DNA of 64,000 nucleotides from an uncultured Muribaculaceae bacterium (GTDB taxonomy: Bacteria; Bacteroidota; Bacteroidia; Bacteroidales; UBA932): positions 2,624 through 66,623 of the forward strand of contig CAZRBY010000006.1 in NCBI GenBank assembly GCA_964598495.1. Direction: 5' to 3'. Below are positions 1,065 to 62,532 of the stretch, piece after piece; the first letter of the stretch is position 1, and each line of letters opens with the position of its first letter. A program made the translations under genes and the position numbers. The notes below the pieces were generated by a model. It worked only from the letters and a program-made list of their open reading frames with translations. It was not told where the DNA came from and ran no database searches.

Positions 1065-1724
1065 TTAACACATGGGTTTTAAATCCTCGGCTATGATAAG
1101 CTTAGCCTCGGTAGCTTCTTGTACCTGTTCAACTGAAAACTCAGGATTGATCTCGGTAAGAAGAAGTCCTTTGGGGGTAACTTTCATCACACCCATTTCG
1201 GTAATAATCATATTGACCTGGCCGGCTGCGGTTAGAGGCAGAGTACACTCTTTCATGATTTTATGGTTGCCCTTAGCAGTATGCTCCATTGTAACAATCA
1301 CATGATTGGCACCAACAATCAAGTCCATTGCGCCACCCATTCCCGGAGTCCTCTTACCGGGGATCATCCAGTTTGCAAGATTACCTTTCTCATCCACCTG
1401 CATTGCACCGAGGAAGGTTGCATGTACATGACCTCCTCTGATGATAAGGAACGAATCGGCTGAAGAACAAGCATAAGCACCTGGATTATAGGTAATAAAA
1501 CCGCCTCCCGCGTTAATGTAATCCTTGTCCTCTTTACCCTCTTCGGGAGCGGGCCCCATACCTACAAGACCATTCTCCGACTGTAGTGTCACTTTGACAC
1601 CTTCGGGGAGATAAGCGGGAATTGCGGTGGGAAGACCGATACCCAAATTAACGACATCACCATCGTGAAGTTCGAGAGCTGCCCTTCTGGCAATAACCTC
1701 TCTGATTTGATTTCTGTCCATCAT
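1065..1724 (-). CDS. atoA: CoA-transferase subunit B (butyrate/acetate:acetoacetate CoA-transferase, AtoA-like)
   Basis: 219 aa. The N-terminus MMDRNQIREVIARRAALELHDGDVVNLGIGLPT and the SENGLVGMGP motif are typical of 3-oxoacid CoA-transferase B subunits. It lies in the lysine fermentation operon. Confidence 0.85.
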   Translation of the reverse strand: MMDRNQIREVIARRAALELHDGDVVNLGIGLPTAIPAYLPEGVKVTLQSENGLVGMGPAPEEGKEDKDYINAGGGFITYNPGAYACSSADSFLIIRGGHVHATFLGAMQVDEKGNLANWMIPGKRTPGMGGAMDLIVGANHVIVTMEHTAKGNHKIMKECTLPLTAAGQVNMIITEMGVMKVTPKGLLLTEINPEFSVEQVQEATEAKLIIAEDLKPMC

Positions 1725-1752: not shown

Positions 1753-2544
1753 TTATTTTATTGACATTCTCTTGACAAATTCCTGAACAATGAATGAAGC
1801 AACGTCATCAGCATAAGTATTCATGCCGAAACCTGCGTCATATCCCAGTTCTTTGGCAAGTTCATGGGAGATACGGGGACCACCGCATACAAGAATCATT
1901 TTGTCACGCAAGCCTTCCGCCTCCATAAGCTCCACAAGTTCAGTCATGTTCTTAATATGAACATCCTTCTGGGTTACAGTCTGAGAAACGAGAAGCGCAT
2001 CAGCATTGAGTTCTATTGCCTTTGCAAGAAAGTCCTCGTTTAGAACCTGACTGCCTAGGTTGTGAGCCTCAAGCATATCATACCGCTCAAGACCGTAATG
2101 TCCTGCATAGCCCTTCATATTCATAATAGCATCTATCCCCACTGTATGGGCGTCCGTACCTGTTGAAGCGCCGACAACTACTAATTTTCGACCGATATTT
2201 TCACGGATGTAATCGTCTGTCTCATTCATATCCATAACCGATGATTCCACTTTCGGAACATAAATTGATGTGTAATCCACTGTATGGACTGTACTGCCGT
2301 AGCAATTGAAGAAAGTATATCCCGGAGTAAGCTCACGAAAATATACTACGAGAGGGTTATCAAACCCCATATCTTTGATAAGCTGTTTTGCAGCCTCTGT
2401 TGCCTCTGCACCGGCAGGAACGGGAAGAGTAAAGCTAAGTTGCACCTTACCGTCATTCATTGTATCGCCGTAGGGCTTTACCTTGGTCAGATCAAGGGTC
2501 TTGTCGAAGTCCTTGTCAGACATTGAATATAATCCGCAGCTCAT
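1753..2544 (-). CDS. kamE: lysine 5,6-aminomutase beta subunit (B12- and PLP-binding)
   Basis: 263 aa. It has the DxHxxG cobalamin-binding motif (DAHTVG, D131-G136, His133) and Lys144 in NMKGYAG, where I recall the PLP-binding lysine of 5,6-LAM beta. It sits immediately downstream of kamD with a 1-nt gap. Confidence 0.9.
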   Translation of the reverse strand: MSCGLYSMSDKDFDKTLDLTKVKPYGDTMNDGKVQLSFTLPVPAGAEATEAAKQLIKDMGFDNPLVVYFRELTPGYTFFNCYGSTVHTVDYTSIYVPKVESSVMDMNETDDYIRENIGRKLVVVGASTGTDAHTVGIDAIMNMKGYAGHYGLERYDMLEAHNLGSQVLNEDFLAKAIELNADALLVSQTVTQKDVHIKNMTELVELMEAEGLRDKMILVCGGPRISHELAKELGYDAGFGMNTYADDVASFIVQEFVKRMSIK

Positions 2545-2545
2545 A

Positions 2546-4099
2546 TTATTTTACTCCTTTCATTAATTTTACAAATGGATTCATATAATTCTCGCCCTTC
2601 TGGACTACGCCGTCAAGGCCCTTACCGCCGTTTTTAGGACGTTTCACATCACCGAAAATACCCTTTTCGAGAGCATTGAAAAGACCCTCGGCAACTATTT
2701 TTTCAAGAAGCTCCACTGCATCGCCTAGCACTCGAGCAGCCCTATTTCGAATAATGCCACCCTCTTTGAACTCAACTTCCTCACCGATATCCTTCATATT
2801 TCCGAAAATATATTTGGCATTCTCTATAGCGAGGTAACGGTCACTCATAAAAGGAGTGTGGACTGCTTCCGTAGGCATACCAAGAAGCTGTATTCCCTGA
2901 TTGGTCCAAATACCGATCATATTGAAGAGAGCATCCTGAATGTGTCCTTTGAAGATATTTCCGGTCATGAACTTTGTAGGAGGCATATATTTCAGAGGGG
3001 CCTTCGGAAAAATCTCACGAGTCATCTGGGCCTGTGCGAGTTCATAGAGAAATCCGTTCTCAAGTTCGGGATCCATCTCAAATGCATGTCCCAGACCCAT
3101 CTGCTCCTCAGGAAGACCTGCGAGCAGTGCAAGCTGTTCGTTTATTAAGTCAGAGACAAGTACTGTGTGGGCAGCCTCTACCGCATCTGAAGTGGTAAGG
3201 TAGTTGTCCTCGCCGGTGTTTATGATAACACCTGCAAATCCGTTGATAACACGTGAGAAAAACTGGTCTACAAAAGTCCGCTGCATATTGATATCCCTGA
3301 AAAGAATTCCGTAAAGAGCATCATTGAGCATCACGTCAAGGCCTTCAAAAGCGCCCATAATGGCGATTTCAGGCATGCAGAGGCCTGAACAGTAGTTGCA
3401 GAGGCGTATATAGCGTCCTACCTCCTCTCCCACCTTGTCAAGAGCCTCACGCATGATGCGGAAATTCTCCTGTGTAGCGAATGTACCTCCGAAACCTTCT
3501 GTTGTGGCTCCGTAAGGCACATAGTCTAGGAGCGACTGGCCGGTAGTACGGATCACAGCTATGATATCCGCCCCTTGACGTGCTGCTGCCTCCGCCTGCA
3601 CCACATCTTCGTAGATATTGCCTGTGGCGACTATTACGTAGATATAGGGTCTGGGACCCTCACCGATAGTTTTCAGATAGTGATTCCGACGCTCGCGTCT
3701 TGCACGAATACGGTCAATCGAACCATTAATTACCGGCTGAAGAATCTCATCAATCTTCTTTTTATCAACAACTTCTATTCTTACAAGGTCAATTGTACCG
3801 GACGCAACACCTTCTGCAATCTGTTGAGGCGAAAGTCCGGTCTGAACCATTGCGTTGCCTATATAGAAAAGCACGCCCTGATTCAAAACACCTTTACCCT
3901 TGAGTTCATCTACAACGACATTCGGTAGCGGTACCTGATTTTCATCGATACCATCAATGCCCAAAAGTCGGCACAGAGTCCTTTCCACTGCAACCGTGGT
4001 ATAAGACTCTGCGAAAGTCTGTACGTCATCAGCTATATTCTTCGCCAGAGAGCGCGCATAATCGACTTTCTTGAAATCCAATCCTAATTTGCTTTGCAT
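2546..4099 (-). CDS. kamD: lysine 5,6-aminomutase alpha subunit
   Basis: 517 aa, the size and TIM-barrel-like sequence expected of KamD. It is paired with kamE and sits in the operon with kamA, kdd, kce and kal. Confidence 0.85.
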   Translation of the reverse strand: MQSKLGLDFKKVDYARSLAKNIADDVQTFAESYTTVAVERTLCRLLGIDGIDENQVPLPNVVVDELKGKGVLNQGVLFYIGNAMVQTGLSPQQIAEGVASGTIDLVRIEVVDKKKIDEILQPVINGSIDRIRARRERRNHYLKTIGEGPRPYIYVIVATGNIYEDVVQAEAAARQGADIIAVIRTTGQSLLDYVPYGATTEGFGGTFATQENFRIMREALDKVGEEVGRYIRLCNYCSGLCMPEIAIMGAFEGLDVMLNDALYGILFRDINMQRTFVDQFFSRVINGFAGVIINTGEDNYLTTSDAVEAAHTVLVSDLINEQLALLAGLPEEQMGLGHAFEMDPELENGFLYELAQAQMTREIFPKAPLKYMPPTKFMTGNIFKGHIQDALFNMIGIWTNQGIQLLGMPTEAVHTPFMSDRYLAIENAKYIFGNMKDIGEEVEFKEGGIIRNRAARVLGDAVELLEKIVAEGLFNALEKGIFGDVKRPKNGGKGLDGVVQKGENYMNPFVKLMKGVK

Positions 4100-4219
4100 A
4101 ATTAAATAGTGTGTAGTATGTAGTTAGTAGTGTGTAGTAATAAAATAGTGTGTAGTATGTAGTTAGTAGTGTGTAGTTTGTAGTGTGTAGTTTGTAGTGT
4201 GTAGTGTGTAGTGTGTAGT
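4100..4219. repeat. heptad-periodic tandem repeat spacer (TGTGTAG/TGTAGTA-type) between the MutS-like gene and kamD
   Basis: A 35-nt unit, AAATAGTGTGTAGTATGTAGTTAGTAGTGTGTAGT, occurs at 4104-4138 and again at 4143-4177. It is followed by TTTGTAGTGTGTAG x2 and TGTGTAG x2. The plus strand has no C at all from 4100 to 4230, so the operon mRNA is G-free here. Confidence 0.95.
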
Positions 4220-5572
4220 TTATTGTGTGTCGAGTATTTTTGTCGCCTCGTCAAGCCATCTCGAACTGACTCCAAGTTTCCGGGCGATATTGAGAGCCTC
4301 GTGGGGTACCTCGTTGTCGGCTGACTCGGTTAACGAATAATCCATTTTGAGCCTATCAGAGCCTTCTATATCCTCTACCAGACCCTTCACTCTCCAGCAT
4401 CTGGCGCTACTATCCACATTGTAGTGGGTTGTGAGTATCAGAGAGAGATTGGAGCAATCAGTGAGTATTCTTAGCAGAGATGAGACCAGTGCGCTCCCTT
4501 CGGTAGGGTTGGTGGTTCGGGCCGGCTCGTCAACCAGCGCAAGCGTCTTCGCCCCACTCTCCACCATTTCAATCATCCTGTCAATGCGCAACATCTCAGC
4601 AGCGAAAGAGGAAAGTCCCTTCTGCTGGTCCTGATCGTCACCAAAACAAAATACTATGTTCTCCACCGGTACCATCTCCGCTTTGAGCGCAGGAACTGCA
4701 AAACCGAACTGAAAAAGATACTGGCATAGACAGAGGCTCTTCAGGGCTACGGTCTTACCACCCATATTGGCTCCGATTATTATACCTGGCTCCCCGAGCT
4801 TGTAGCGGAAAGCAACTTTCTGGAATACTTTTCCCTTTTGTGCGAGGATGGATTTAACCTCAGGATGAAACAGACCTTCGAAAGATGAGCTATTTCCTAC
4901 CTCCGGAATAGTGAACGACTCTTTTTTGCGTTGGATTGCTTTGGAAATGACAATATCCAGTTCGGCGAGAGAATGTAACAAGTTTGTTAGTTCCGTTGCA
5001 TAGGGCCGCAGGAGGTTACAAAGAACCCTTTTAATCCTCTCTTCCTCATTTATGAGCCTGTCTTTTAGTTCCTCATTGTCAGGATCACTCTCAAGCTCCC
5101 TTCTGAGTTTCCGCACCTCCATAGAATAGGAGTCATATACATAGAAAGTACCTATTTTGAGGCCGTCAGGATCCAAAATACGGATTATATTATCAAGATC
5201 GAAATTGGTCCACACATTGGAGATTTCCGCCCTGGAGAATAACTGTTTCACCTCATCCCCCAATAGCGCAAGATGTTTTATTTCGAACAATTCTATATCG
5301 TCAAGCGCAGATCCCTCCTCCAGAGAGGTGAGGGTATTGTAAATGTTACGCAATCCCTGAAGTCTGAATTGCAAATTCTGTATCAGGGAAGGTTCTCTTT
5401 CCACTAAGGAAGTGAATTTATCCAGAGAGGCATATGCTTCCTCTATCTCTTCGGCAGTTGTCATCATCCTGCTGTCGAGGAGATATTTGCGGGCATAGCC
5501 GGACTGCAGTTCGAGCAAATCAAAGCAGTAGCGAATACCGCATGGGGAATCTATTATCTCTTTAAAAGTCAT
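4220..5572 (-). CDS. MutS domain V-type ATPase (MutS-like, no mismatch-recognition or Smr domain), embedded in the lysine aminomutase operon
   Basis: 450 aa. Walker A is GANMGGKT and Walker B is LALVDEP, followed by TNPTEGSAL, as in the MutS ATPase core. The N-terminal 230 aa are helical (core/clamp-like). It is too short to carry MutS domains I and II. Confidence 0.75.
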   Translation of the reverse strand: MTFKEIIDSPCGIRYCFDLLELQSGYARKYLLDSRMMTTAEEIEEAYASLDKFTSLVEREPSLIQNLQFRLQGLRNIYNTLTSLEEGSALDDIELFEIKHLALLGDEVKQLFSRAEISNVWTNFDLDNIIRILDPDGLKIGTFYVYDSYSMEVRKLRRELESDPDNEELKDRLINEEERIKRVLCNLLRPYATELTNLLHSLAELDIVISKAIQRKKESFTIPEVGNSSSFEGLFHPEVKSILAQKGKVFQKVAFRYKLGEPGIIIGANMGGKTVALKSLCLCQYLFQFGFAVPALKAEMVPVENIVFCFGDDQDQQKGLSSFAAEMLRIDRMIEMVESGAKTLALVDEPARTTNPTEGSALVSSLLRILTDCSNLSLILTTHYNVDSSARCWRVKGLVEDIEGSDRLKMDYSLTESADNEVPHEALNIARKLGVSSRWLDEATKILDTQ

Positions 5573-6518
5573 ATTTTTCTCTATCTTTCACAATATCATA
5601 TACCGGCAGACCGATAGCTGCGGAGAGTGTGCTGCACAGAAGGTCGGAATCAAGCACGATGCCGTTGGGGGCTACCGGATTGACGCAAACAGCTATCAGT
5701 TTGCTCTTCATCCGCACAGATATCCTGCCTCCCCTTCTGATAAAGGATCTATAGAGGTCCGGGGAGACAAAAATGCGAGTAAAATCATTGACCACCAGTT
5801 CTTTTTCGCCTTTTATCAGTTCGTTCTTAACCGCTTGAAGCAATCTGTTCGTAAGAGCCCCTTCCACTCCTATAACGGAATGGTTTCTTATTGCATCCGT
5901 ACAGAGGTCGGAAAATGAAGAAATTTCCGTTTCAGTTTCCTTGCCGGTAAAGAACGGAAGGTTGATCAGGTCAACAATAAATGAAGTCCCGGCCACCAGA
6001 TCCTTGATATTGGCTGAAAAAGCAGCACCCGTCGAGAGCACCATCGCCTCGCTTATAGCAGGGGATGCCGTGCTTAATCTCGAAAGGGCTCCATCCACCA
6101 GTATCAGGTCTATACCGTAATTATTCAATGAACTCATCCATCTTTTAAGCGCACTTCCGGAAGATGGACCGGAAAGGAGAACTTTGCCCTCCTGAAGTGC
6201 TTTTGCAGTTACCACACGCCCCAAAGCTGTGGTCATATCACTCACATCATACAACTCGGAAAGGATCTTCCTTTCCCGATAGTGTTTTTCGCTTGTCCCG
6301 AAAAACATCCCTTCTTTAATCGTAATCTCGGGTTTGGCGGTGGAAGTCATCTGATCAAGTGACTCCCCGTCAAGTCCGATTGATGTCACCGCCACCGAAA
6401 AATAATCGGTTGGCAGCCTGTTGATAATATAGTTGAGAGACTCTGTCTTGCCCGTATTCTTCTCAAGCCCGACAATAGATACGCTGCGGTATTTGAGTAT
6501 CTCATCTATAAAGGGCAT
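5562..6518 (-). CDS. P-loop NTPase-like protein of unknown function (DTBS/CobQ/MobB-like N-terminus), lysine operon-associated
   Basis: The track ORF 5562..6608 begins at a TTG that overlaps kamA by 86 nt. The first ATG, at 6518, lies 4 nt after the kamA stop and gives MPFIDEILKYRSVSIVGLEKNTGKTES, with a GxxxxGKT-like P-loop. It overlaps the MutS-like start by 11 nt, which suggests translational coupling. Confidence 0.6.
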   Translation of the reverse strand: MPFIDEILKYRSVSIVGLEKNTGKTESLNYIINRLPTDYFSVAVTSIGLDGESLDQMTSTAKPEITIKEGMFFGTSEKHYRERKILSELYDVSDMTTALGRVVTAKALQEGKVLLSGPSSGSALKRWMSSLNNYGIDLILVDGALSRLSTASPAISEAMVLSTGAAFSANIKDLVAGTSFIVDLINLPFFTGKETETEISSFSDLCTDAIRNHSVIGVEGALTNRLLQAVKNELIKGEKELVVNDFTRIFVSPDLYRSFIRRGGRISVRMKSKLIAVCVNPVAPNGIVLDSDLLCSTLSAAIGLPVYDIVKDREKYDF

Positions 6519-6522
6519 AATC

Positions 6523-7773
6523 CTAGTGCTTGCTACGTTCTTTGCGTTGGAGGAACGCAGGTTCAATTGCCATCTTCTGACCTTCCAGAAGGGAAACAAC
6601 TCCTTCAAGCGGTTTCTTTTGGCCTTTACGACACTCCTCGCAAGTGCACTCGAAGTGATACTCGCCGGGCTCGGTGTAAGTGGTAATTACACCTTCGAAG
6701 TTGCGCAGAACAACTTTGCCAGGAGCCTGGGAAACCACATACTGAGGCATAACGGGAGTCTTGCCGCCACCACCCGGTGCATCCACGACGAAGGTGGGCA
6801 CAGCATAGCCGGAGGTGTGACCTCTTAGGCCTTCCATAATCTCTATACCCTTTGAAACGGGGGTACGGAAATGTTCCAGTCCCATTGAAAGGTCGCACTG
6901 GTAGATATAATAGGGACGCACGCGAATCTTCACAAGCTCGTGAACAAGTTTCTTCATAACGTGAACGCAATCATTGATACCGCGCAATAGCACAGACTGG
7001 TTTCCGAGAGGAACGCCTGCATCTGCAAGCCTGGCACAAGCCTTGGCAGACTCTTCAGTCACCTCGTTGGGATGGTTGAAGTGTGTGTTTAGCCATATGG
7101 GATGATATTTCTTGAGCATATTGACCAGGTCATCGGTTATACGCTGAGGGCAAACCACCGGCACTCTCGAGCCAATGCGGATAATCTCCACATGAGGGAT
7201 TGCACGGAGCCTCTTAATTATGTCTTCCAGTTTCGCATCGCTAACCATAAGGGCATCGCCTCCGGAAAGAAGCACATCCCTCACCTGAGGAGTACGGGCT
7301 ATGTACTCAATTGCCTTATCGATCCTCCCACTTGGGCTTTCTGCATCTTTCTGCCCTGCAAAACGTCTTCTGGTACAATGGCGACAATACATTGAACACA
7401 TATCGGTGATAAGAAGCAGCACTCTGTCCGGATACCTGTGGGTAAGACCGGGAGTCGGGGAATCCTCATCCTCATGAAGAGGGTCGAGAAGGTCTGCTGC
7501 TGCCTGATGCGTCTCTGCACCTGTAGGGATTGCCTGCTTACGGATGGGATCGTTGGAATCTTCAGGGTTGATGAGTGAAATATAATAAGGAGTAATTGCC
7601 ATCCTGAGGGTAGAGAGTGTCTTTTTGACACCCTCTTCCTCCTCGGGAGTTAATTTAACGTATTTTTTGAGTTGGTCAAGAGTCTCGATCCTGTTTTTTA
7701 CCTGCCATTTCCAGTCATCCCACTGTGCATCCGTAACCTCAGGAAAGAGTTCTTTTCTTCTTGATACATTCAT
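6523..7773 (-). CDS. kamA: L-lysine 2,3-aminomutase (radical SAM)
   Basis: 416 aa. It has the CSMYCRHCTRRR radical-SAM CxxxCxxC motif plus the LLSGGDAL and RIGSRVPV motifs typical of KamA/AblA. Confidence 0.93.
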   Translation of the reverse strand: MNVSRRKELFPEVTDAQWDDWKWQVKNRIETLDQLKKYVKLTPEEEEGVKKTLSTLRMAITPYYISLINPEDSNDPIRKQAIPTGAETHQAAADLLDPLHEDEDSPTPGLTHRYPDRVLLLITDMCSMYCRHCTRRRFAGQKDAESPSGRIDKAIEYIARTPQVRDVLLSGGDALMVSDAKLEDIIKRLRAIPHVEIIRIGSRVPVVCPQRITDDLVNMLKKYHPIWLNTHFNHPNEVTEESAKACARLADAGVPLGNQSVLLRGINDCVHVMKKLVHELVKIRVRPYYIYQCDLSMGLEHFRTPVSKGIEIMEGLRGHTSGYAVPTFVVDAPGGGGKTPVMPQYVVSQAPGKVVLRNFEGVITTYTEPGEYHFECTCEECRKGQKKPLEGVVSLLEGQKMAIEPAFLQRKERSKH

Positions 7774-7782
7774 ATCCTCAGT

Positions 7783-8823
7783 TTATGCGTATAGTTCAGT
7801 AAATATATTTCTCAATTTTTCACTCTCTCTGAGTAACTGAAGAGTGATTTCTGCGTGACCCTTGGTGTAACCGTTACCAATGATCATAGTAACATCGCTG
7901 CCTACACCCTCCGCACCGAGGGCCGCTTTTGTAAAGCTGGTTGCCATTGAGAAGAAATAGATGATACCGTCGTTCTTGGTACATAGGATCGAAGTCATCT
8001 CCGTATCGGGAACGTTTACGTTATTGATTGTTACATCAGCCATTTTACCGCCGGTGAGCTCATATATTTTTTCGTACATTGAGATGGGATCGTTTGCATT
8101 ACCTGCAAATACAACATCACAGAAACCGAGGTCTTGCATGCGTTTGGTTGACCTTTGGCTATGAGTCATACCGATAACCTTACCTGTCACACCTACACGT
8201 TTCTTCGCCTCATAGCAACAAAGCATACCTGATTTTCCACCTGCACCTATAACAAGGACGGTATCGCCGGGTCTGCAAAGTTTTGCAGTTTGAGCGGGAG
8301 CACCTGCAACGTCAAGAGCCGAGAGAGCCAGTTTTTCGGGCATATCCGTAGGTATCTTTGCATAAATACCGCTTTCAAAGAGAATGGCCTTACCCTTGAT
8401 GTCCACCTGATCAACATCTTCGCGGATTTCCAGAATCTCGTCGATGCGAAGGGGAGTAAGTGAAAGGGATACGAGAGTGGCAATCTTATCACCTACTTTG
8501 AGGTCGATCTTACCCAAAAGAGCATCACCTATTTTCTCGACTCTGCCGAGGAGCATACCACCTGAACCTGTACGACGGTTGCGGTGTTTGCCCTGGAGCT
8601 CAACGTTGAGGAGTATCTCCTTTTTCATCTCTTCCTTATCGTGATTACAGAAATTGGCTATATCGGTAAATGAAGCCGAGTCAATATTTAAAGTCTGAAC
8701 ATCAATAAGGATCTCGTTGTCATAGATCTCGTCCATATTGTTGTCAATCCTATTTGCCGGCTGGGGAAGAACGCCCTTAGGCTCAATTACACGGTGCGTT
8801 CCATATTTGTTACCTTTTTTCAT
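7783..8823 (-). CDS. kdd: L-erythro-3,5-diaminohexanoate dehydrogenase
   Basis: 346 aa with a Rossmann motif (VIGAGGKSG). Its position between kamA and kce matches the known lysine fermentation gene set. Confidence 0.8.
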   Translation of the reverse strand: MKKGNKYGTHRVIEPKGVLPQPANRIDNNMDEIYDNEILIDVQTLNIDSASFTDIANFCNHDKEEMKKEILLNVELQGKHRNRRTGSGGMLLGRVEKIGDALLGKIDLKVGDKIATLVSLSLTPLRIDEILEIREDVDQVDIKGKAILFESGIYAKIPTDMPEKLALSALDVAGAPAQTAKLCRPGDTVLVIGAGGKSGMLCCYEAKKRVGVTGKVIGMTHSQRSTKRMQDLGFCDVVFAGNANDPISMYEKIYELTGGKMADVTINNVNVPDTEMTSILCTKNDGIIYFFSMATSFTKAALGAEGVGSDVTMIIGNGYTKGHAEITLQLLRESEKLRNIFTELYA

Positions 8824-8865
8824 TGTTGTACTATTGTTGTATTTATGATTATTGTTTAAAAATGA

Positions 8866-9693
8866 TTACTGTCTTGGAGCCAACCCAAGGATTTGGCGTG
8901 CTTCAGCCGGAGTTGCAATGCCGCGGCCGAGTTCTTTGGCAAGTCTCACCACCTTGGCAACAAGTTCACCGTTGGATTGTGCGAGGACTCCCCTACTTAG
9001 ATAGAGACTGTCTTCAAATCCAACTCTCACATTGCCACCCATAGAAATTGCCGGAGCAACAAGAGTAAAATTGTGGCGACCTATACCTGTAGCACACCAG
9101 GTGCTGCCAGCGGGGATGGAATTCACAAGCCAGCAAAGATTGGGAATGGTTGCTGAAGTACAACCGGGAACACCGAGAACGAAGTTAAAATGCATCGGGT
9201 GACCGGGAACCTCACCTTTACGAGCCATTGTCAGTATTGTGTCAAGATGCCCCATTTCAAAGCACTCGTACTCAGGTTTTATGTTGTTTTCTTGCATTCT
9301 TTTACCGAACTCGCGCATCATTGGCATTGTATTTTCGAACACTTCATCACCAAAATTACAGGTTCCGCAATCGAGGGTAGCCATTTCGGGAAAAAGTTCC
9401 GTAGGCTGAAGTCTCTCTTCGGCTGTCATACCTACTGCACCACCGGTAGAAGGGATAAGGATAACATCGGGACAAACCTTATAGATAGCGTCAATACACT
9501 CCTTGAAGCGTGCTTTGCCTTGTGTAGGAGTGCCGTCATCCTCACGAACATGGAGATGGACTATGGCTGCACCGGCATCGACTGCCGATTTGGCCTCACG
9601 TACAATTTCGTAAACAGTATAGGGAACCGCAGGATTTTGCTCCTTCGTAACCTCTGCGCCGCATATGGCGGCGGTAATAATGAGTTTATCCAT
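8866..9693 (-). CDS. kce: 3-keto-5-aminohexanoate cleavage enzyme (BKACE/DUF849 family)
   Basis: The track start at 9711 is a TTG. The ATG at 9693 follows the kal stop (9696-9698) and gives MDKLIITAAICGAEVTKEQNPAVPYT, a typical BKACE N-terminus. Confidence 0.85.
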   Translation of the reverse strand: MDKLIITAAICGAEVTKEQNPAVPYTVYEIVREAKSAVDAGAAIVHLHVREDDGTPTQGKARFKECIDAIYKVCPDVILIPSTGGAVGMTAEERLQPTELFPEMATLDCGTCNFGDEVFENTMPMMREFGKRMQENNIKPEYECFEMGHLDTILTMARKGEVPGHPMHFNFVLGVPGCTSATIPNLCWLVNSIPAGSTWCATGIGRHNFTLVAPAISMGGNVRVGFEDSLYLSRGVLAQSNGELVAKVVRLAKELGRGIATPAEARQILGLAPRQ

Positions 9694-9695
9694 AA

Positions 9696-10082
9696 TTATT
9701 TCCTCTGGCAAGATTTAGGAGTTACACAAGTACCGCTTGCACGGCATACAACGATGGGCTCTTCGAGAAAGTCAGCAGCTGAATCGCTGATATCGTGACG
9801 GGGAATAATCACTTTACGAGCCTCGAATACCATTTTTCTGGAAGAATTGCCTTCGGAAACAATCTCGCCTACTGCCTCGATAAATTCACCGGCATATACG
9901 GGAGCGAAAAATTCAACCATATCATAGGCTTTGAAGAGACCTTCATCACCATCGCGTTTAATCAAAAGTTCGGTAGCAACATCACCGAAAAGTTGAAGCA
10001 TTTTTGCGCCGTCAACTAAATTACCGCCGTAATGAGCATCCTGAGAGCTCATACGTACTCTGATCATTGATTTGTTTGCCAT
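9696..10082 (-). CDS. kal: 3-aminobutyryl-CoA ammonia-lyase (hotdog fold)
   Basis: 128 aa. Size and operon position (between atoD and kce) match Kal. The call rests mostly on context. Confidence 0.7.
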
Positions 10083-10115
10083 AAATAGTTTCTTTAAATA
10101 TCTGTTATTGTATTA

Positions 10116-10766
10116 TTATTGTTTTACATAGATGTAATCAACAAAAATAGAAGGGGTGTGTATAGCTTCGGGAGCCAGTTCACCGACCGGAACCATCTTT
10201 TCTGCCTCCACAATCACAACATCGCCGGCCTGTGCCATTGTGGGATTGAAATTGCGCGTCGTGCCTCTGTAGAATACATTGCCTGACTCATCGACGATAG
10301 AACCTCCGATGAATGCAAAATCAGCACCGAGGGGTTTTTCAATGAGATAGTCCTTTCCATCAATTGTGATCCTCTTCTTGCCTTTCTCAACGACAGTATC
10401 GAGACCTGTGGGTGTCAGCACGCCGCCAAGACCTGCACCCTTTGCACGGATACGCTCTGCAAGAGGACACTGGGGAACGAACTCAACCTCTGTTTCACCG
10501 GAATTCATCTGGTCTACGGATGCGGTATTACCTCCAATATATGAGGCTATGATCTTCTTAACCTGACGATTTTCAATCAACCTGCCCCACCCCTTGCCGT
10601 CAAACACAGTGTCATTGGCAATAACTGTCAGATCCTTGACTCCGCTCTCCACAAGAGCATCAATTAACTGCGCGGGAGCTCCGGTACCGAGGAAGCCTCC
10701 GACCATAATTGTAGCGCCGTCTTTTACCATTGCAACGGCATCCTTAAGAGAAATGTTTTTTTTCAT
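10116..10766 (-). CDS. atoD: CoA-transferase subunit A (AtoD-like)
   Basis: 216 aa. MKKNISLKDAVAMVKDGATIMVGGFLGTGAP is a typical CoA-transferase A-subunit N-terminus. It is the first gene of the operon. Confidence 0.85.
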   Translation of the reverse strand: MKKNISLKDAVAMVKDGATIMVGGFLGTGAPAQLIDALVESGVKDLTVIANDTVFDGKGWGRLIENRQVKKIIASYIGGNTASVDQMNSGETEVEFVPQCPLAERIRAKGAGLGGVLTPTGLDTVVEKGKKRITIDGKDYLIEKPLGADFAFIGGSIVDESGNVFYRGTTRNFNPTMAQAGDVVIVEAEKMVPVGELAPEAIHTPSIFVDYIYVKQ

Positions 10767-35770: not shown

Positions 35771-35785
35771 TCACTTAGACTCCAC

Positions 35786-35834
35786 ACTACATACTACATA
35801 CTACATACTACATACTACATACTACATACTACAT
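35786..35834. repeat. (ACTACAT)x7 perfect heptanucleotide microsatellite
   Basis: Counted directly; seven perfect units. It ends 2 nt from the recQ stop codon (35837-35839). The plus strand is G-free from about 35779 to 35878. Confidence 0.97.
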
Positions 35835-35836
35835 AA

Positions 35837-42813: not shown

Positions 42814-42840
42814 ACTACATACTACATACTACATACTACT
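42814..42840. repeat. (ACTACAT)x3.9 heptanucleotide microsatellite overlapping the asd 3' end
   Basis: Counted directly. The asd stop (TAG, 42822-42824) and its last five codons (V-V-C-S-M) are encoded by the repeat. Confidence 0.95.
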
Positions 42841-61266: not shown

Positions 61267-62532
61267 ATGAAACGCTCTTTTTTAACATTATTCGTTTTCA
61301 CTTTATCTTTTTTCGGTTGTGAAAAAGAGCCGGTATTTGTGGAAATTGAATATGTTAAATTCAACCATCAACTCTTCGAAGAGAATGTAAAGATGGAAGA
61401 GCTTATCAAGAAGGCTTCCAGAGAGTTTGGGGCCACTCCTAGAGAAATGTTGTTGGAAGCTGGTTATAACGAGGAACAAACACAACAAGTGCTCGAAAAA
61501 CTCAACCTCTATGTTGCGCTTTCAAAGGATCACACCGTACATGGCATTGCATATAACACTAAAGATCCCCTTGGTGAATCCGTTGTGGCATCCGGACTCC
61601 TATATTGTCCTCAAAATAGGTTGCCCAAAGGTGTAATCTTCGTATATCCTCTTTTAAAAACCAAAGGGAATAGCGGTACAGATGTTCGATTCAGTTTGGA
61701 GGCCCTGTTGGCTATATCCGGTGATTATATATGTATGATACCGGATGGGATTGGACAGGGTATCAGTTCAAATCAACCTATCTCTATAATTCAACATGAA
61801 AATTTAGCTGAAACAGGTACGGATTTTTATCTGGCAGCCAGAGAGTTTATTTATAATCGCTATCACTACAAACTACCTAAAAATATTTATCTACTTGGCT
61901 ATTCCCTTGGTGGTTCAGCCATCTGGTCAATGGCCCGATATCTCACAATCCACAAGGAGCTTGGGATAGGTGTGAAAGATATCTTTGTAGGAGGAGGTCC
62001 TTACTACCCGGACCTCTTTATGAAGAACATATTTGAGAGTCGTAATTCTAACTATGCTTCCATACCCTTCATACTCTGGTCTTTGAACTACTATGAGAAT
62101 TTAAATATAGATTTTACAAAGATTTTTAAGGGCAAACTTTTGGATGAATTCCCCTCACTATGTGATGGTCATAAAGGACTCAAAGATGTTACGTCTTATA
62201 TCGGAACCGATCTTAACGACTATTTAGATAAGGATTTTTTACAAAATGAAGAGAATCAATACCGACAATTGATTATGGATGCATTGGAAAAAAATTCAAT
62301 ACCAAATGATTGGCTACCTGAAGTCAAGGTTCATTTATACAACTGTTATAACGACCTATATGTTCCCTCAATTTGTGGAGATAAACTATACGAATATCTA
62401 AGGGAGGTAAATGCCAATGTTGAGTATATTCATGAGGATATAACACACGAAAAGATGATTATTAGGATGATGATAGATTTTTACAAGCACCTTTATCCGG
62501 ATAATCCCTATAATTTGCCGAAGCTTTATTGA
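61267..62532 (+). CDS. alpha/beta-hydrolase lipoprotein (lipase/esterase-like)
   Basis: 421 aa with a lipobox (SFFGC) and the nucleophile elbow GYSLGG. Candidate Asp (YNCYNDLYVP) and His (EDITHEK) occur in the canonical Ser-Asp-His order. Confidence 0.7.
   Translation: MKRSFLTLFVFTLSFFGCEKEPVFVEIEYVKFNHQLFEENVKMEELIKKASREFGATPREMLLEAGYNEEQTQQVLEKLNLYVALSKDHTVHGIAYNTKDPLGESVVASGLLYCPQNRLPKGVIFVYPLLKTKGNSGTDVRFSLEALLAISGDYICMIPDGIGQGISSNQPISIIQHENLAETGTDFYLAAREFIYNRYHYKLPKNIYLLGYSLGGSAIWSMARYLTIHKELGIGVKDIFVGGGPYYPDLFMKNIFESRNSNYASIPFILWSLNYYENLNIDFTKIFKGKLLDEFPSLCDGHKGLKDVTSYIGTDLNDYLDKDFLQNEENQYRQLIMDALEKNSIPNDWLPEVKVHLYNCYNDLYVPSICGDKLYEYLREVNANVEYIHEDITHEKMIIRMMIDFYKHLYPDNPYNLPKLY

Follow-up and report, generated by a model that had tools for sequence, protein, structure and literature searches.

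The window, a 64,000-nt stretch of a contig from an uncultured Muribaculaceae bacterium, carries a complete lysine fermentation operon on its minus strand, in which two genes, kamB and kamC, lie between the lysine 2,3-aminomutase gene kamA and the lysine 5,6-aminomutase genes kamDE. The coordinates of all features are summarized in Table 1. After the kamA stop codon TAG (6523-6525) come 4 nt and then the ATG of kamB, and the end of kamB runs into the start of kamC; kamA, kamB, and kamC are tightly coupled in translation. A preliminary description of this DNA had already placed two ORFs with an 11-nt overlap between kamA and kamDE; the sequence bears this out exactly, and NCBIfam profiles identify kamA, kamD, and kamE. 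A TTG codon at 6608 was rejected as the start of kamB: it would run into kamA, and the homologues, which start with MPFI..., give it no support. Neither kamB nor kamC is a chance ORF, as their homologues number in the thousands.

Upstream of kamA lie kdd, kce, kal, and a gene for a CoA-transferase subunit, in an order that is kept in 80 related loci. For the counterparts of these upstream genes in one relative (L081), the Pfam families BKACE, KDD_N, 4HBT, and CoA_trans are recorded. There is no reductase gene among the ORFs of the operon. The Rfam search of the window gave no riboswitch and no other RNA element, and the operon has no convincing internal terminator. The spacer between kamC and kamD is a tandem repeat (period 7, 17 copies, TRF); a shorter form of this heptamer spacer is also present in the relative L002.

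Table 1. Features of the lysine fermentation operon in the window, listed from its upstream to its downstream end
Feature	Position	Strand	Remarks
CoA-transferase subunit	10116-10766	-	ORF; operon gene upstream of kamA (upstream genes span 7783..10766)
kal	9696-10082	-	ORF; operon gene upstream of kamA
kce	8866-9711	-	ORF; operon gene upstream of kamA
kdd	7783-8823	-	ORF; operon gene upstream of kamA
kamA, lysine 2,3-aminomutase (radical SAM)	6523..7773	-	TIGR03820, 619.6 bits
kamB (reactivase subunit KamB)	5562..6518	-	318-aa P-loop protein, 34.7 kDa; ATG at 6518
KamB Walker A/P-loop GLEKNTGKT, aa 17-25	6444..6470	-	G17, K20, N21, G23, K24, T25 invariant in 26-sequence alignment
KamB Walker-B-like strand LILVDGALSR, aa 138-147	6078..6107	-	AF2 strand at 138-142
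kamB stop/kamC start overlap, ATGACTTTTAA	5562..5572	-	exactly 11 nt, read in the sequence; translational coupling
kamC (reactivase ATPase KamC)	4220..5572	-	450-aa MutS2-like ABC ATPase, 50.9 kDa
KamC Walker A GANMGGKT, aa 267-274	4751..4774	-	conserved across phyla
KamC ABC-signature-like GLSSFAAEM, aa 319-327	4592..4618	-	G319, L320, S321, E326 invariant in cross-phylum alignment
KamC Walker B LALVDEP (aa 344-350) and family-specific TNPxEG motif, aa 344-362	4487..4543	-	cross-phylum alignment
KamC His-switch TTHY, aa 381-384	4421..4432	-	H383 invariant in cross-phylum alignment
kamC-kamD spacer	4100..4219	-	120 nt; ~17 copies of C/A-rich heptamer (ACTACAC and variants)
kamD	2546..4099	-	NF052384, 927.5 bits; Pfam Lys-AminoMut_A
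kamE	1753..2544	-	NF052385, 414.9 bits; Pfam OAM_dimer and B12-binding
CoA-transferase subunit (atoA-like)	1065..1724	-	ORF; final operon gene, position conserved in related loci

KamC Is Modelled with a MutS2-Like Core

KamC scores 369.7 bits (E 2.4e-110) against NCBIfam NF052383, “lysine 5,6-aminomutase reactivase ATPase KamC,” and thus passes the equivalog cut-off of 300. In Pfam it matches MutS_V alone (71.5 bits), with no Smr, KOW, mismatch-binding, or MutS_I-IV domain, and the protein ends at aa 450, directly after the ATPase domain. The ATPase set of Walker A, signature, Walker B, and His-switch is intact. TNPTEGSAL occupies aa 354-362, and the cross-phylum alignment shows no variation at D348, E349, T354, N355, P356, E358, or G359. 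The preliminary description was accurate here as well: the MutS motifs that it had read (GANMGGKT, LALVDEP, and TNPTEGSAL) are all present, and the mismatch-binding, connector, and Smr domains that it had called missing are absent from the Pfam results.

The AF2 model of KamC (pLDDT 81.7) has a MutS2-like core made of lever and ABC ATPase, in which the N-terminal 220 residues form MutS lever/core helices and are not extra sequence. About 50 strand-free residues lie between two long lever helices, at the site where the clamp domain would be. The best Foldseek matches were MutS2 7qv3 (E 6e-19, TMq 0.68) and 7vuf, and the only solved relatives were MutS/MutS2 structures. Against the MutS2 proteins of Bacillus subtilis (7qv3), Thermus thermophilus (core, 7vuf/7vuk), and Thermotoga maritima (9kce), nearly all 450 residues of KamC are matched with a TMq of 0.60-0.68, and the sequence similarity to MutS2 reaches an E-value of 4e-18 over residues 168-385. 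KamC differs from MutS2 in its low identity (~20-22%), in its lack of a KOW or Smr endonuclease domain, in its Walker B region (DEPARTTNPxEG), and in its genomic context, which is metabolic and not one of repair or ribosome rescue.

We rejected the assignment of KamC to MutS2 itself (TIGR01069), for which it reaches 148.6 bits where 400 are required and covers only positions 236-450 of the 790 in the profile, with no Smr or KOW. Assignment to MutS1 was likewise rejected, with 70.8 bits for TIGR01070 and 80.9 bits for NF003810 against cut-offs of 641.7 and 480, and no MutS_I or MutS_II.

KamB Is a P-Loop Protein with Weak Structural Neighbors

KamB scores 304.2 bits (E 9.2e-91) against NCBIfam NF052386, “lysine 5,6-aminomutase reactivase subunit KamB,” where the equivalog cut-off is 210. 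It has no Pfam family match and no solved relative in the PDB. Both hallmarks of the family, an N-terminal P-loop of the form G-x-x-K-N-x-G-K-T and a conserved D-G after the third strand, are found in KamB: in an alignment of 26 sequences with identities down to 29%, G17, K20, N21, G23, K24, and T25 are invariant, as are D142 and G143. The P-loop and the Walker-B Asp are both intact.

The AF2 model of KamB (pLDDT 76) has two domains and a SIMIBI-like P-loop, with a beta-rich insert at aa 47-118 and a further alpha/beta domain at the C terminus. Foldseek gives it only weak structural neighbors, with a best E of 5e-3 and a TM of about 0.3, and these belong to the SIMIBI P-loop NTPases. The P-loop had been described beforehand as DTBS/CobQ/MobB-like; the motif GLEKNTGKT stands, but that likeness is loose, the fold being SIMIBI-like with weak matches only.

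Candidate identities from B12 metabolism were rejected for both proteins. As a MeaB/ArgK-type G3E B12 chaperone, KamB has no NCBIfam or Pfam match, and its Foldseek match to 2qm8 has an E-value of 0.034 and a TM of 0.26. As adenosyltransferases of the CobA, PduO, or EutT type, KamB and KamC have no Pfam or NCBIfam match at E up to 0.01 and none among the Foldseek matches. Profile alignment (hhalign) of KamB and KamC with KamD and KamE gave probabilities of at most 1%, with no sign of DdrB-style subunit mimicry, and the alignment with KamA was also negative.

Distribution and Synteny

The order atoD-kal-kce-kdd-kamA-kamB-kamC-kamD-kamE-atoA is kept in 80 species-representative Bacteroidales loci. 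Where there was room to tell, kamC followed kamB in all but one case (75/76), and in 67/68 a kamD was detected after kamC. The distance from kamC to kamD is within about 100 nt in most of these loci and 1-4 kb in five. Marinitoga and Mesotoga (Thermotogota) share the order kamA-(MaoC)-kamB-MutS_V-kamD-kamE, which is also found on another metagenome contig; in Thermotogota, a MaoC gene lies between kamA and kamB, and kamC overlaps kamD. The two ORFs, which had been expected to co-occur with lysine operons elsewhere, thus do so in the Bacteroidales and across phyla. Median identity is 54% for KamB and 45% for KamC, vs 80-83% for KamA, KamD, and KamE; KamB and KamC evolve faster, as accessory factors typically do.

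For distant homologues, the gene context rests on 11 cases examined singly, several of them on short contigs. KamB was found in every sampled lysine operon. Some of these operons (L093/L094) have KamB without KamC, and their kamD begins 10 nt after KamB. One KamB-KamC pair (L085/L086) exceeds the equivalog cut-offs of both families and is coupled in translation to an ABC-F ATPase; its contig shows no kamDE over the 3 kb upstream or the 6.7 kb downstream, and there is no kamA nearby. On a 5.8-kb contig (L092), KamB follows kamA, and neither KamC nor kamDE is nearby. The missing KamC, the pair away from kamDE, and the KamB that accompanies kamA only all speak against a reactivase of KamDE made up of these two proteins, as do the lack of resemblance of either protein to any established B12 reactivase and the negative result on subunit mimicry.

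Relation to the Classical E2 Component

Turnover inactivates lysine 5,6-aminomutase within minutes, which has limited its use as a biocatalyst. In native preparations of the enzyme, a protein of ~80 kDa, E2, gave ATP dependence and reactivation; recombinant KamDE undergoes suicide inactivation, and the ATP effect is lost without E2 (PMC3958899; PMC9081730). The self-inactivation proceeds during turnover by electron transfer that leads to cob(III)alamin, and isolated E2 had adenosylcobalamin synthetase activity and moved label from [8-14C]ATP to E1 (2014 review, PMC3958899). KamB and KamC at 1:1 have a combined mass of 85.6 kDa, close to that of E2. The cysteines of KamC are conserved within Bacteroidales only and not across phyla, and the property of E2 as a “sulfhydryl protein” is therefore unaccounted for.

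The identity of E2 has been a question since the 1970s, and kamB and kamC are the obvious candidate. We conclude that kamB and kamC are the right names for the two ORFs and that their products together very probably constitute E2, the accessory ATP-dependent activating and reactivating component of the adenosylcobalamin/PLP enzyme KamDE. This identity is already public and not new, as equivalogs of NCBIfam release 20 carry the KamB and KamC names, and UniRef and some NCBI records give the homologues the same reactivase names. Because curated databases already name the genes in this way, the pair in the window is one more member and not a discovery. It scores above both family cut-offs and sits at the defining position between kamA and kamD; no feature sets it apart, and it is best described as an uncharacterised Bacteroidales member of NF052383/NF052386.

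These scores and the agreeing names support the proposal in the preliminary description of an ATP-dependent reactivation pair for the B12 aminomutase, and, at least as far as annotation goes, they supersede its statement that no genes had been assigned. Its mention of MutS-annotated ORFs in Fusobacterium-type operons also proved correct: the lysine clusters of Fusobacterium, a Bacteroidetes contig, and Cloacamonas are drawn with “HP” and “mutS” genes (Fig. 2, PMC3149608). The C. sticklandii genome paper is silent on both genes, and in the open reviews of 2014 and 2022, E2 is still only a protein fraction. In open-access full text, we found no paper with direct biochemical or genetic proof of a reactivase role for KamB or KamC, and the functional name therefore rests on curated annotation and context.

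Putative Mechanism and Known Reactivation Systems

We propose how the pair could act. KamB and KamC would form a complex, to which the 11-nt overlap, the co-occurrence of the genes, and the combined mass of 85.6 kDa point indirectly. In this complex, KamC may serve as a MutS2-like, nucleotide-driven clamp/lever machine stripped of its DNA- and ribosome-directed domains. Binding and hydrolysis of ATP by KamC would open the interface between the Rossmann B12 domain of KamE and the barrel of KamD, and the damaged cobalamin could then be released. KamB, as a putative SIMIBI-type P-loop NTPase that shares its broad class with the B12 chaperone MeaB, might gate or deliver fresh adenosylcobalamin.

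The reactivases of diol/glycerol dehydratase (DdrAB/GdrAB) and ethanolamine ammonia-lyase (EutA) have the same job as that proposed for KamBC, the ATP-dependent release of damaged cobalamin from suicide-inactivated adenosylcobalamin enzymes, and their genes lie beside those of the client enzymes, as kamBC lies beside kamDE. They are Hsp70/actin-like ATPases, and the folds are unrelated: that of KamC is of the MutS/ABC kind, and that of KamB is the SIMIBI-like fold of a P-loop NTPase. The analogy of lysine 5,6-aminomutase with these systems has been drawn before (PMC9081730). MeaB/MMAA, the chaperone of methylmalonyl-CoA mutase, resembles KamB in being a SIMIBI-like P-loop NTPase encoded beside B12 mutase genes. 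MeaB (2qm8) is among the weak structural neighbors of KamB, though no better than MinD, NifH, or Get3; the two share no sequence family, and KamB has the insert and the C-terminal domain in addition.

The closest homologue of KamDE, OraSE, also has an accessory gene next to it, ora_ARF, whose product we take to be of the GlmL/EutA type. It is annotated as a single gene, whereas KamDE has the KamB/KamC pair. In the ornithine operon, ora_ARF adjoins OraSE and is annotated as a putative adenosylcobalamin reactivating factor of D-ornithine 4,5-aminomutase (bioRxiv 10.1101/2020.01.04.894915).

Alternative Explanations

It is possible, though not probable, that KamDE depends on KamB alone as its essential cofactor chaperone, a MeaB-like P-loop gate that loads adenosylcobalamin and ejects damaged cobalamin, with KamC as a dispensable, modular remodelling ATPase that acts as a booster and may have other clients. 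The presence of KamB in all sampled lysine operons and the absence of KamC from L093/L094 fit this explanation, as do the higher conservation of KamB, its SIMIBI neighbors with MeaB among them, and the coupling of a KamC-like gene to an ABC-F ATPase elsewhere. However, KamC could be encoded elsewhere in the L093 genome, KamB is still beside KamC at a non-lysine locus (L085), and the likeness to MeaB is unspecific. The two genes are also adjacent, and often overlapping, in nearly all Bacteroidales loci and in Thermotogota, which speaks for an obligate pair in both groups. An in-place repair, with E2 as an ATP:cobalamin adenosyltransferase that acts on enzyme-bound cobalamin and donates the adenosyl group at one nucleotide site, most likely the KamB P-loop, seems unlikely to us. 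CobA-type adenosyltransferases are P-loop proteins, which counts in its favor. So do the synthetase activity of E2 and the label transfer to E1 (PMC3958899), although a contaminant of the partially purified fraction could be the source of that activity. Inactive cob(III)alamin would moreover require a two-electron reduction in an operon that encodes no reductase, and the searches of Pfam, NCBIfam, and Foldseek gave KamB no adenosyltransferase match.

We consider it very unlikely that the pair, or KamB by itself, serves the radical-SAM enzyme KamA instead of KamDE, for instance in the upkeep of its Fe-S cluster or cofactor. The start of kamB so close to the end of kamA and the arrangement in L092 point that way, but the L092 contig spans only 5.8 kb, and its genome may carry kamDE upstream of kamA or at another site. 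In Thermotogota it is kamA that is parted from kamB while kamC overlaps kamD, and the L085 pair has no kamA nearby. The kamA/ablA genes outside lysine fermentation are not known to be accompanied by kamB/kamC-like genes, and the biochemical precedent is that E2 belongs to the B12 enzyme. That KamC is a true nucleic-acid- or ribosome-directed protein of the MutS2 type, with an incidental position in the operon, we hold to be extremely improbable. The solved structures nearest to it show MutS2 bound to collided ribosomes and MutS bound to DNA, and one homologue is translationally coupled to the ribosome-associated ABC-F ATPase. On the other side stand equivalog scores far below all three MutS cut-offs, the missing Smr, KOW, and mismatch-binding domains, a clamp-domain site reduced to ~50 residues with no strands, and a kamB-kamC-kamD placement that is conserved across two phyla.

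Implications for the Family

The family varies between genomes, with KamB-only operons and pairs away from kamDE. This variation would fit a quite unlikely view in which KamB and KamC are not a fixed two-subunit reactivase: KamB would be the universal partner of the aminomutase, and KamC a portable, MutS2-derived remodelling ATPase that is also used outside lysine fermentation. If KamC is portable in this sense, the current equivalog names claim too much, and there is a further client on which a MutS2-like machine acts. The assignment of kamB and kamC also has a practical use, as many records of the family are still called “MutS,” “MutS2,” “permease,” or “hypothetical.”

A coupled gene pair between the two aminomutases

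The lysine operon of the window contains kamB (ORF-B), encoding a P-loop protein, and kamC (ORF-C), encoding a MutS-like ATPase. The preliminary description had placed two ORFs with an 11-nt overlap between kamA and kamDE, and this coupled pair was confirmed: both lie on the minus strand, they share exactly 11 nt (ATGACTTTTAA), and their neighbors match the models for the radical-SAM lysine 2,3-aminomutase (kamA) and for the adenosylcobalamin- and PLP-dependent lysine 5,6-aminomutase (KamDE). Only 4 nt separate the TAG stop of kamA from the ATG of kamB. Starting kamB at a TTG (6608) would make it run into kamA; this longer version is unsupported, because all homologues begin MPFI. Upstream in the operon are kdd, kce, kal, and one CoA-transferase subunit gene, with the second subunit gene on the downstream side; neither an Rfam element nor a convincing terminator was found inside the operon.

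Coordinates of the features in the window and in loci of its relatives (L handles)
Feature	Sequence	Position	Strand	Details
kamB (ORF-B)	Window	5562-6518	minus	318 aa; ATG start at 6518
kamC (ORF-C)	Window	4220-5572	minus	450 aa
kamA	Window	6523-7773		TIGR03820, 620 bits
kamD	Window	2546-4099		NF052384, 928 bits
kamE	Window	1753-2544		NF052385, 415 bits
kamC-kamD spacer	Window	4100-4230	minus	heptamer array
ACTACAT array	Window	35779-35835	plus	
ACTACAT array	Window	42814-42839	plus	
ACTACAT array	Window	61865-61876	plus	
Lysine operon	L093/L094	6496-16238		KamB, no MutS-like gene
KamB-KamC pair	L085	3085-6888		no kamDE nearby
KamB-KamC pair	L086	2103-5906		no kamDE nearby
kamA to prfC	L092	57-3129		kamA cut by contig end
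Atypical locus	L077	10001-13004		Bacteroidales
MaoC-type gene	L081/L082	9576-9983		135 aa
MaoC-type gene	L087/L088	7594-8004		135 aa

Both proteins exceeded the curated cut-offs of equivalog-level NCBIfam models. KamC scored 369.7 bits against NF052383, “lysine 5,6-aminomutase reactivase ATPase KamC” (cut-off 300 bits), and KamB scored 304.2 bits against NF052386, “lysine 5,6-aminomutase reactivase subunit KamB” (cut-off 210 bits). Clustering at 50% identity divides the KamB family into 1,837 groups, nearly all with lengths of 290 to 350 aa. Pfam found MutS_V as the sole domain of KamC and matched no family in KamB. A MutS2 or MutS1 identity for KamC was rejected: the scores on these models, 148.6, 80.9, and 70.8 bits, fell short of the respective cut-offs (400, 480, and 641.7).

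Homologues from Marinitoga and Mesotoga are already named “reactivase ATPase KamC” in UniRef, and one from Labilibaculum is “reactivase subunit KamB” at NCBI. Public names are inconsistent even for the same or near-identical proteins, ranging from “DNA mismatch repair protein MutS” to “reactivase ATPase KamC”; the labels “MutS,” “MutS2,” “permease,” and “hypothetical protein” belong to older records of these homologues. Since the reactivase interpretation is already in NCBIfam and UniRef, the finding is a known one, and the window pair is an ordinary new member of known families. Striking as it is for a MutS2-derived ATPase to act as the chaperone of a metabolic enzyme, the case is not new.

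Folds and motifs of KamC and KamB

Every motif that had been read from the sequence was present: GANMGGKT (aa 267 to 274), LALVDEP (344 to 350), and TNPTEGSAL (354 to 362) in KamC, and GLEKNTGKT (17 to 25) in KamB. Alignment across phyla showed that KamC retains the Walker A motif, the GLSSFAxE signature, the Walker B D-E, and the His switch. Those cysteines of KamC that are conserved within Bacteroidales did not stay conserved elsewhere in this alignment.

The AlphaFold2 model of KamC (pLDDT 81.7) matched the MutS2 core over nearly its full length. Its matches include the Thermus MutS2 core (7vuf), the MutS proteins of Taq and E. coli, and, at E = 6e-19 and TMq 0.68, the structure of Bacillus subtilis MutS2 on collided ribosomes (7qv3). 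Residues 1 to 220 are therefore modeled as MutS lever/core helices. Between the predicted long helices 92 to 115 and 167 to 218 lie only about 50 strand-free residues, which we read as a putative vestigial clamp.

In its model (pLDDT 76), KamB has a P-loop domain at the N terminus, into which a beta-rich segment is inserted, and an alpha/beta domain at the C terminus; the P-loop and a Walker-B-like Asp-Gly are kept in the family alignment. Its only structural neighbors, all weak, were the SIMIBI-class NTPases FlhG/MinD, Get3, NifH, HypB, and MeaB (best match E = 5e-3, TM about 0.3), and no solved structure related by sequence was found.

Conservation of the module and its variants

Scanning one genome per species, we obtained at least 564 KamB-encoding stretches and compared the best 80, all of them Bacteroidales. 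As far as the contigs reach, these 80 loci share the order atoD-kal-kce-kdd-kamA-kamB-kamC-kamD-kamE-atoA, apart from L077 and eight loci without kamE. Co-occurrence, which had been proposed as a check, was strong in this best-80 sample: kamC came after kamB in 75 of the 76 loci with room for it, and kamD was detected 3' of kamC in 67 of the 68 with room for kamD. The kamC-kamD distance was about 100 nt or less in most loci and 1 to 4 kb in five. Relative to the window proteins, median identity was 80% for KamA, 82% for KamD, and 83% for KamE, and lower for KamB (54%) and KamC (45%).

Beyond the phylum, the arrangement recurs in the Thermotogota genera Marinitoga and Mesotoga, where kamC overlaps kamD, and on one further metagenome contig. 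The Thermotogota operons (L081/L082 and L087/L088) also have a MaoC-type dehydratase gene between kamA and kamB, which is missing in the window and the Bacteroidales loci. The preliminary description had pointed to MutS-annotated ORFs in Fusobacterium-type operons, and published cluster drawings bear this out, placing “HP” and “mutS” genes in lysine clusters from Cloacamonas, Fusobacterium nucleatum, and a Bacteroidetes contig (Perret et al. 2011, PMC3149608).

Several loci depart from this order. L077 is the sole Bacteroidales locus with room in which kamC does not come after kamB; the next gene, 460 nt further on, encodes an unrelated archaeal-type ATPase_2 protein, no kamD was found in the remaining 7 kb, and either a rearrangement or a chimeric MAG contig could account for this locus. 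Eight other Bacteroidales loci (L010, L013, L017, L018, L020, L021, L022, and L027) keep kamA-kamB-kamC-kamD and then lack kamE and atoA. Their B12-binding subunit must have been lost or be encoded at another site. In L021, the genes that follow kamD instead are those of an SBF-family transporter and a prolyl-oligopeptidase-like protein; L010, L017, L018, and L027 have 1 to 4 kb inserted between kamC and kamD.

Among the distant homologues sampled, the KamB module is not uniform. The full lysine operon kce-kdd-kamA-KamB-kamD-kamE of L093/L094 has 10 nt from the KamB stop to kamD and no MutS-like (MutS_V) gene within 10 kb on either side; its KamB reads DGAFGK where that of the window reads DGALSR. 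The pair encoded in L085 and L086 scores 307 and 381 bits, above both equivalog cut-offs, and the adjoining 3 kb upstream and 6.7 kb downstream contain no kamDE. This pair lies outside any lysine operon, preceded by double-zinc-ribbon proteins, and its KamC-like gene shares 4 nt with the gene of a ribosomal-protection-type ABC-F ATPase; the neighbors, among them SpoIID and dockerin-containing proteins, suggest a Clostridia host. On the 5.8-kb contig of L092, which has no kamDE, kamA and a KamB homologue are followed by two ORFs of about 200 aa that match no Pfam family and do not resemble KamC, and then by prfC. These variants leave room for another division of labor, in which KamB would be the core and KamC a modular component, and the family names may be too narrow. 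They do not undermine the assignment in the window, where the context is canonical.

Relation to classical E2 and a proposed mechanism

Reviews describe the 5,6-aminomutase as a core E1 (an alpha2beta2 tetramer, KamDE) accompanied by E2, an auxiliary protein of about 80 kDa, which conferred ATP dependence and reactivation (PMC3958899; PMC9081730). E2 reportedly had adenosylcobalamin synthetase activity, with label moving from [8-14C]ATP to E1 (PMC3958899). Recombinant KamDE shows no ATP effect and inactivates itself through electron transfer to give cob(III)alamin (PMC3958899; PMC9081730). KamB (34.7 kDa) and KamC (50.9 kDa) sum to 85.6 kDa, which fits the E2 mass better than a homodimer of either protein would. 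Genes for E2 are named in neither review, and we found no open-access paper assigning them or using KamB/KamC for these proteins; the functional name therefore rests on curated annotation and context evidence. The ATP-dependent reactivation/chaperone role proposed for the pair is supported by family membership, synteny in two phyla, and the old biochemistry.

In the mechanism we propose, KamB would form a complex with KamC, whose nucleotide cycle could pry the B12-binding Rossmann domain of KamE off the KamD barrel, freeing damaged cobalamin; KamB might then gate or deliver fresh adenosylcobalamin. KamB would share a broad NTPase class with MeaB, the chaperone of methylmalonyl-CoA mutase, and neither KamB nor KamC matched the NCBIfam or Pfam profiles of MeaB and adenosyltransferase families. 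In profile comparisons, neither KamB nor KamC resembled KamD or KamE, and so no DdrB-style subunit mimicry was found.

Heptamer repeats in the kamC-kamD spacer

The 120-nt kamC-kamD spacer is filled by about 17 tandem C/A-rich heptamers (ACTACAC, ACTACAA, and ACTACAT), which could represent either a microsatellite specific to this genome or an unstructured leader of kamD. Similar ACTACAT arrays occur at two more intergenic sites of the window (listed positions in the table), with 23 matches in the window against 0.14 expected by chance. The same spacer in the relative L002 carries a shorter heptamer array.
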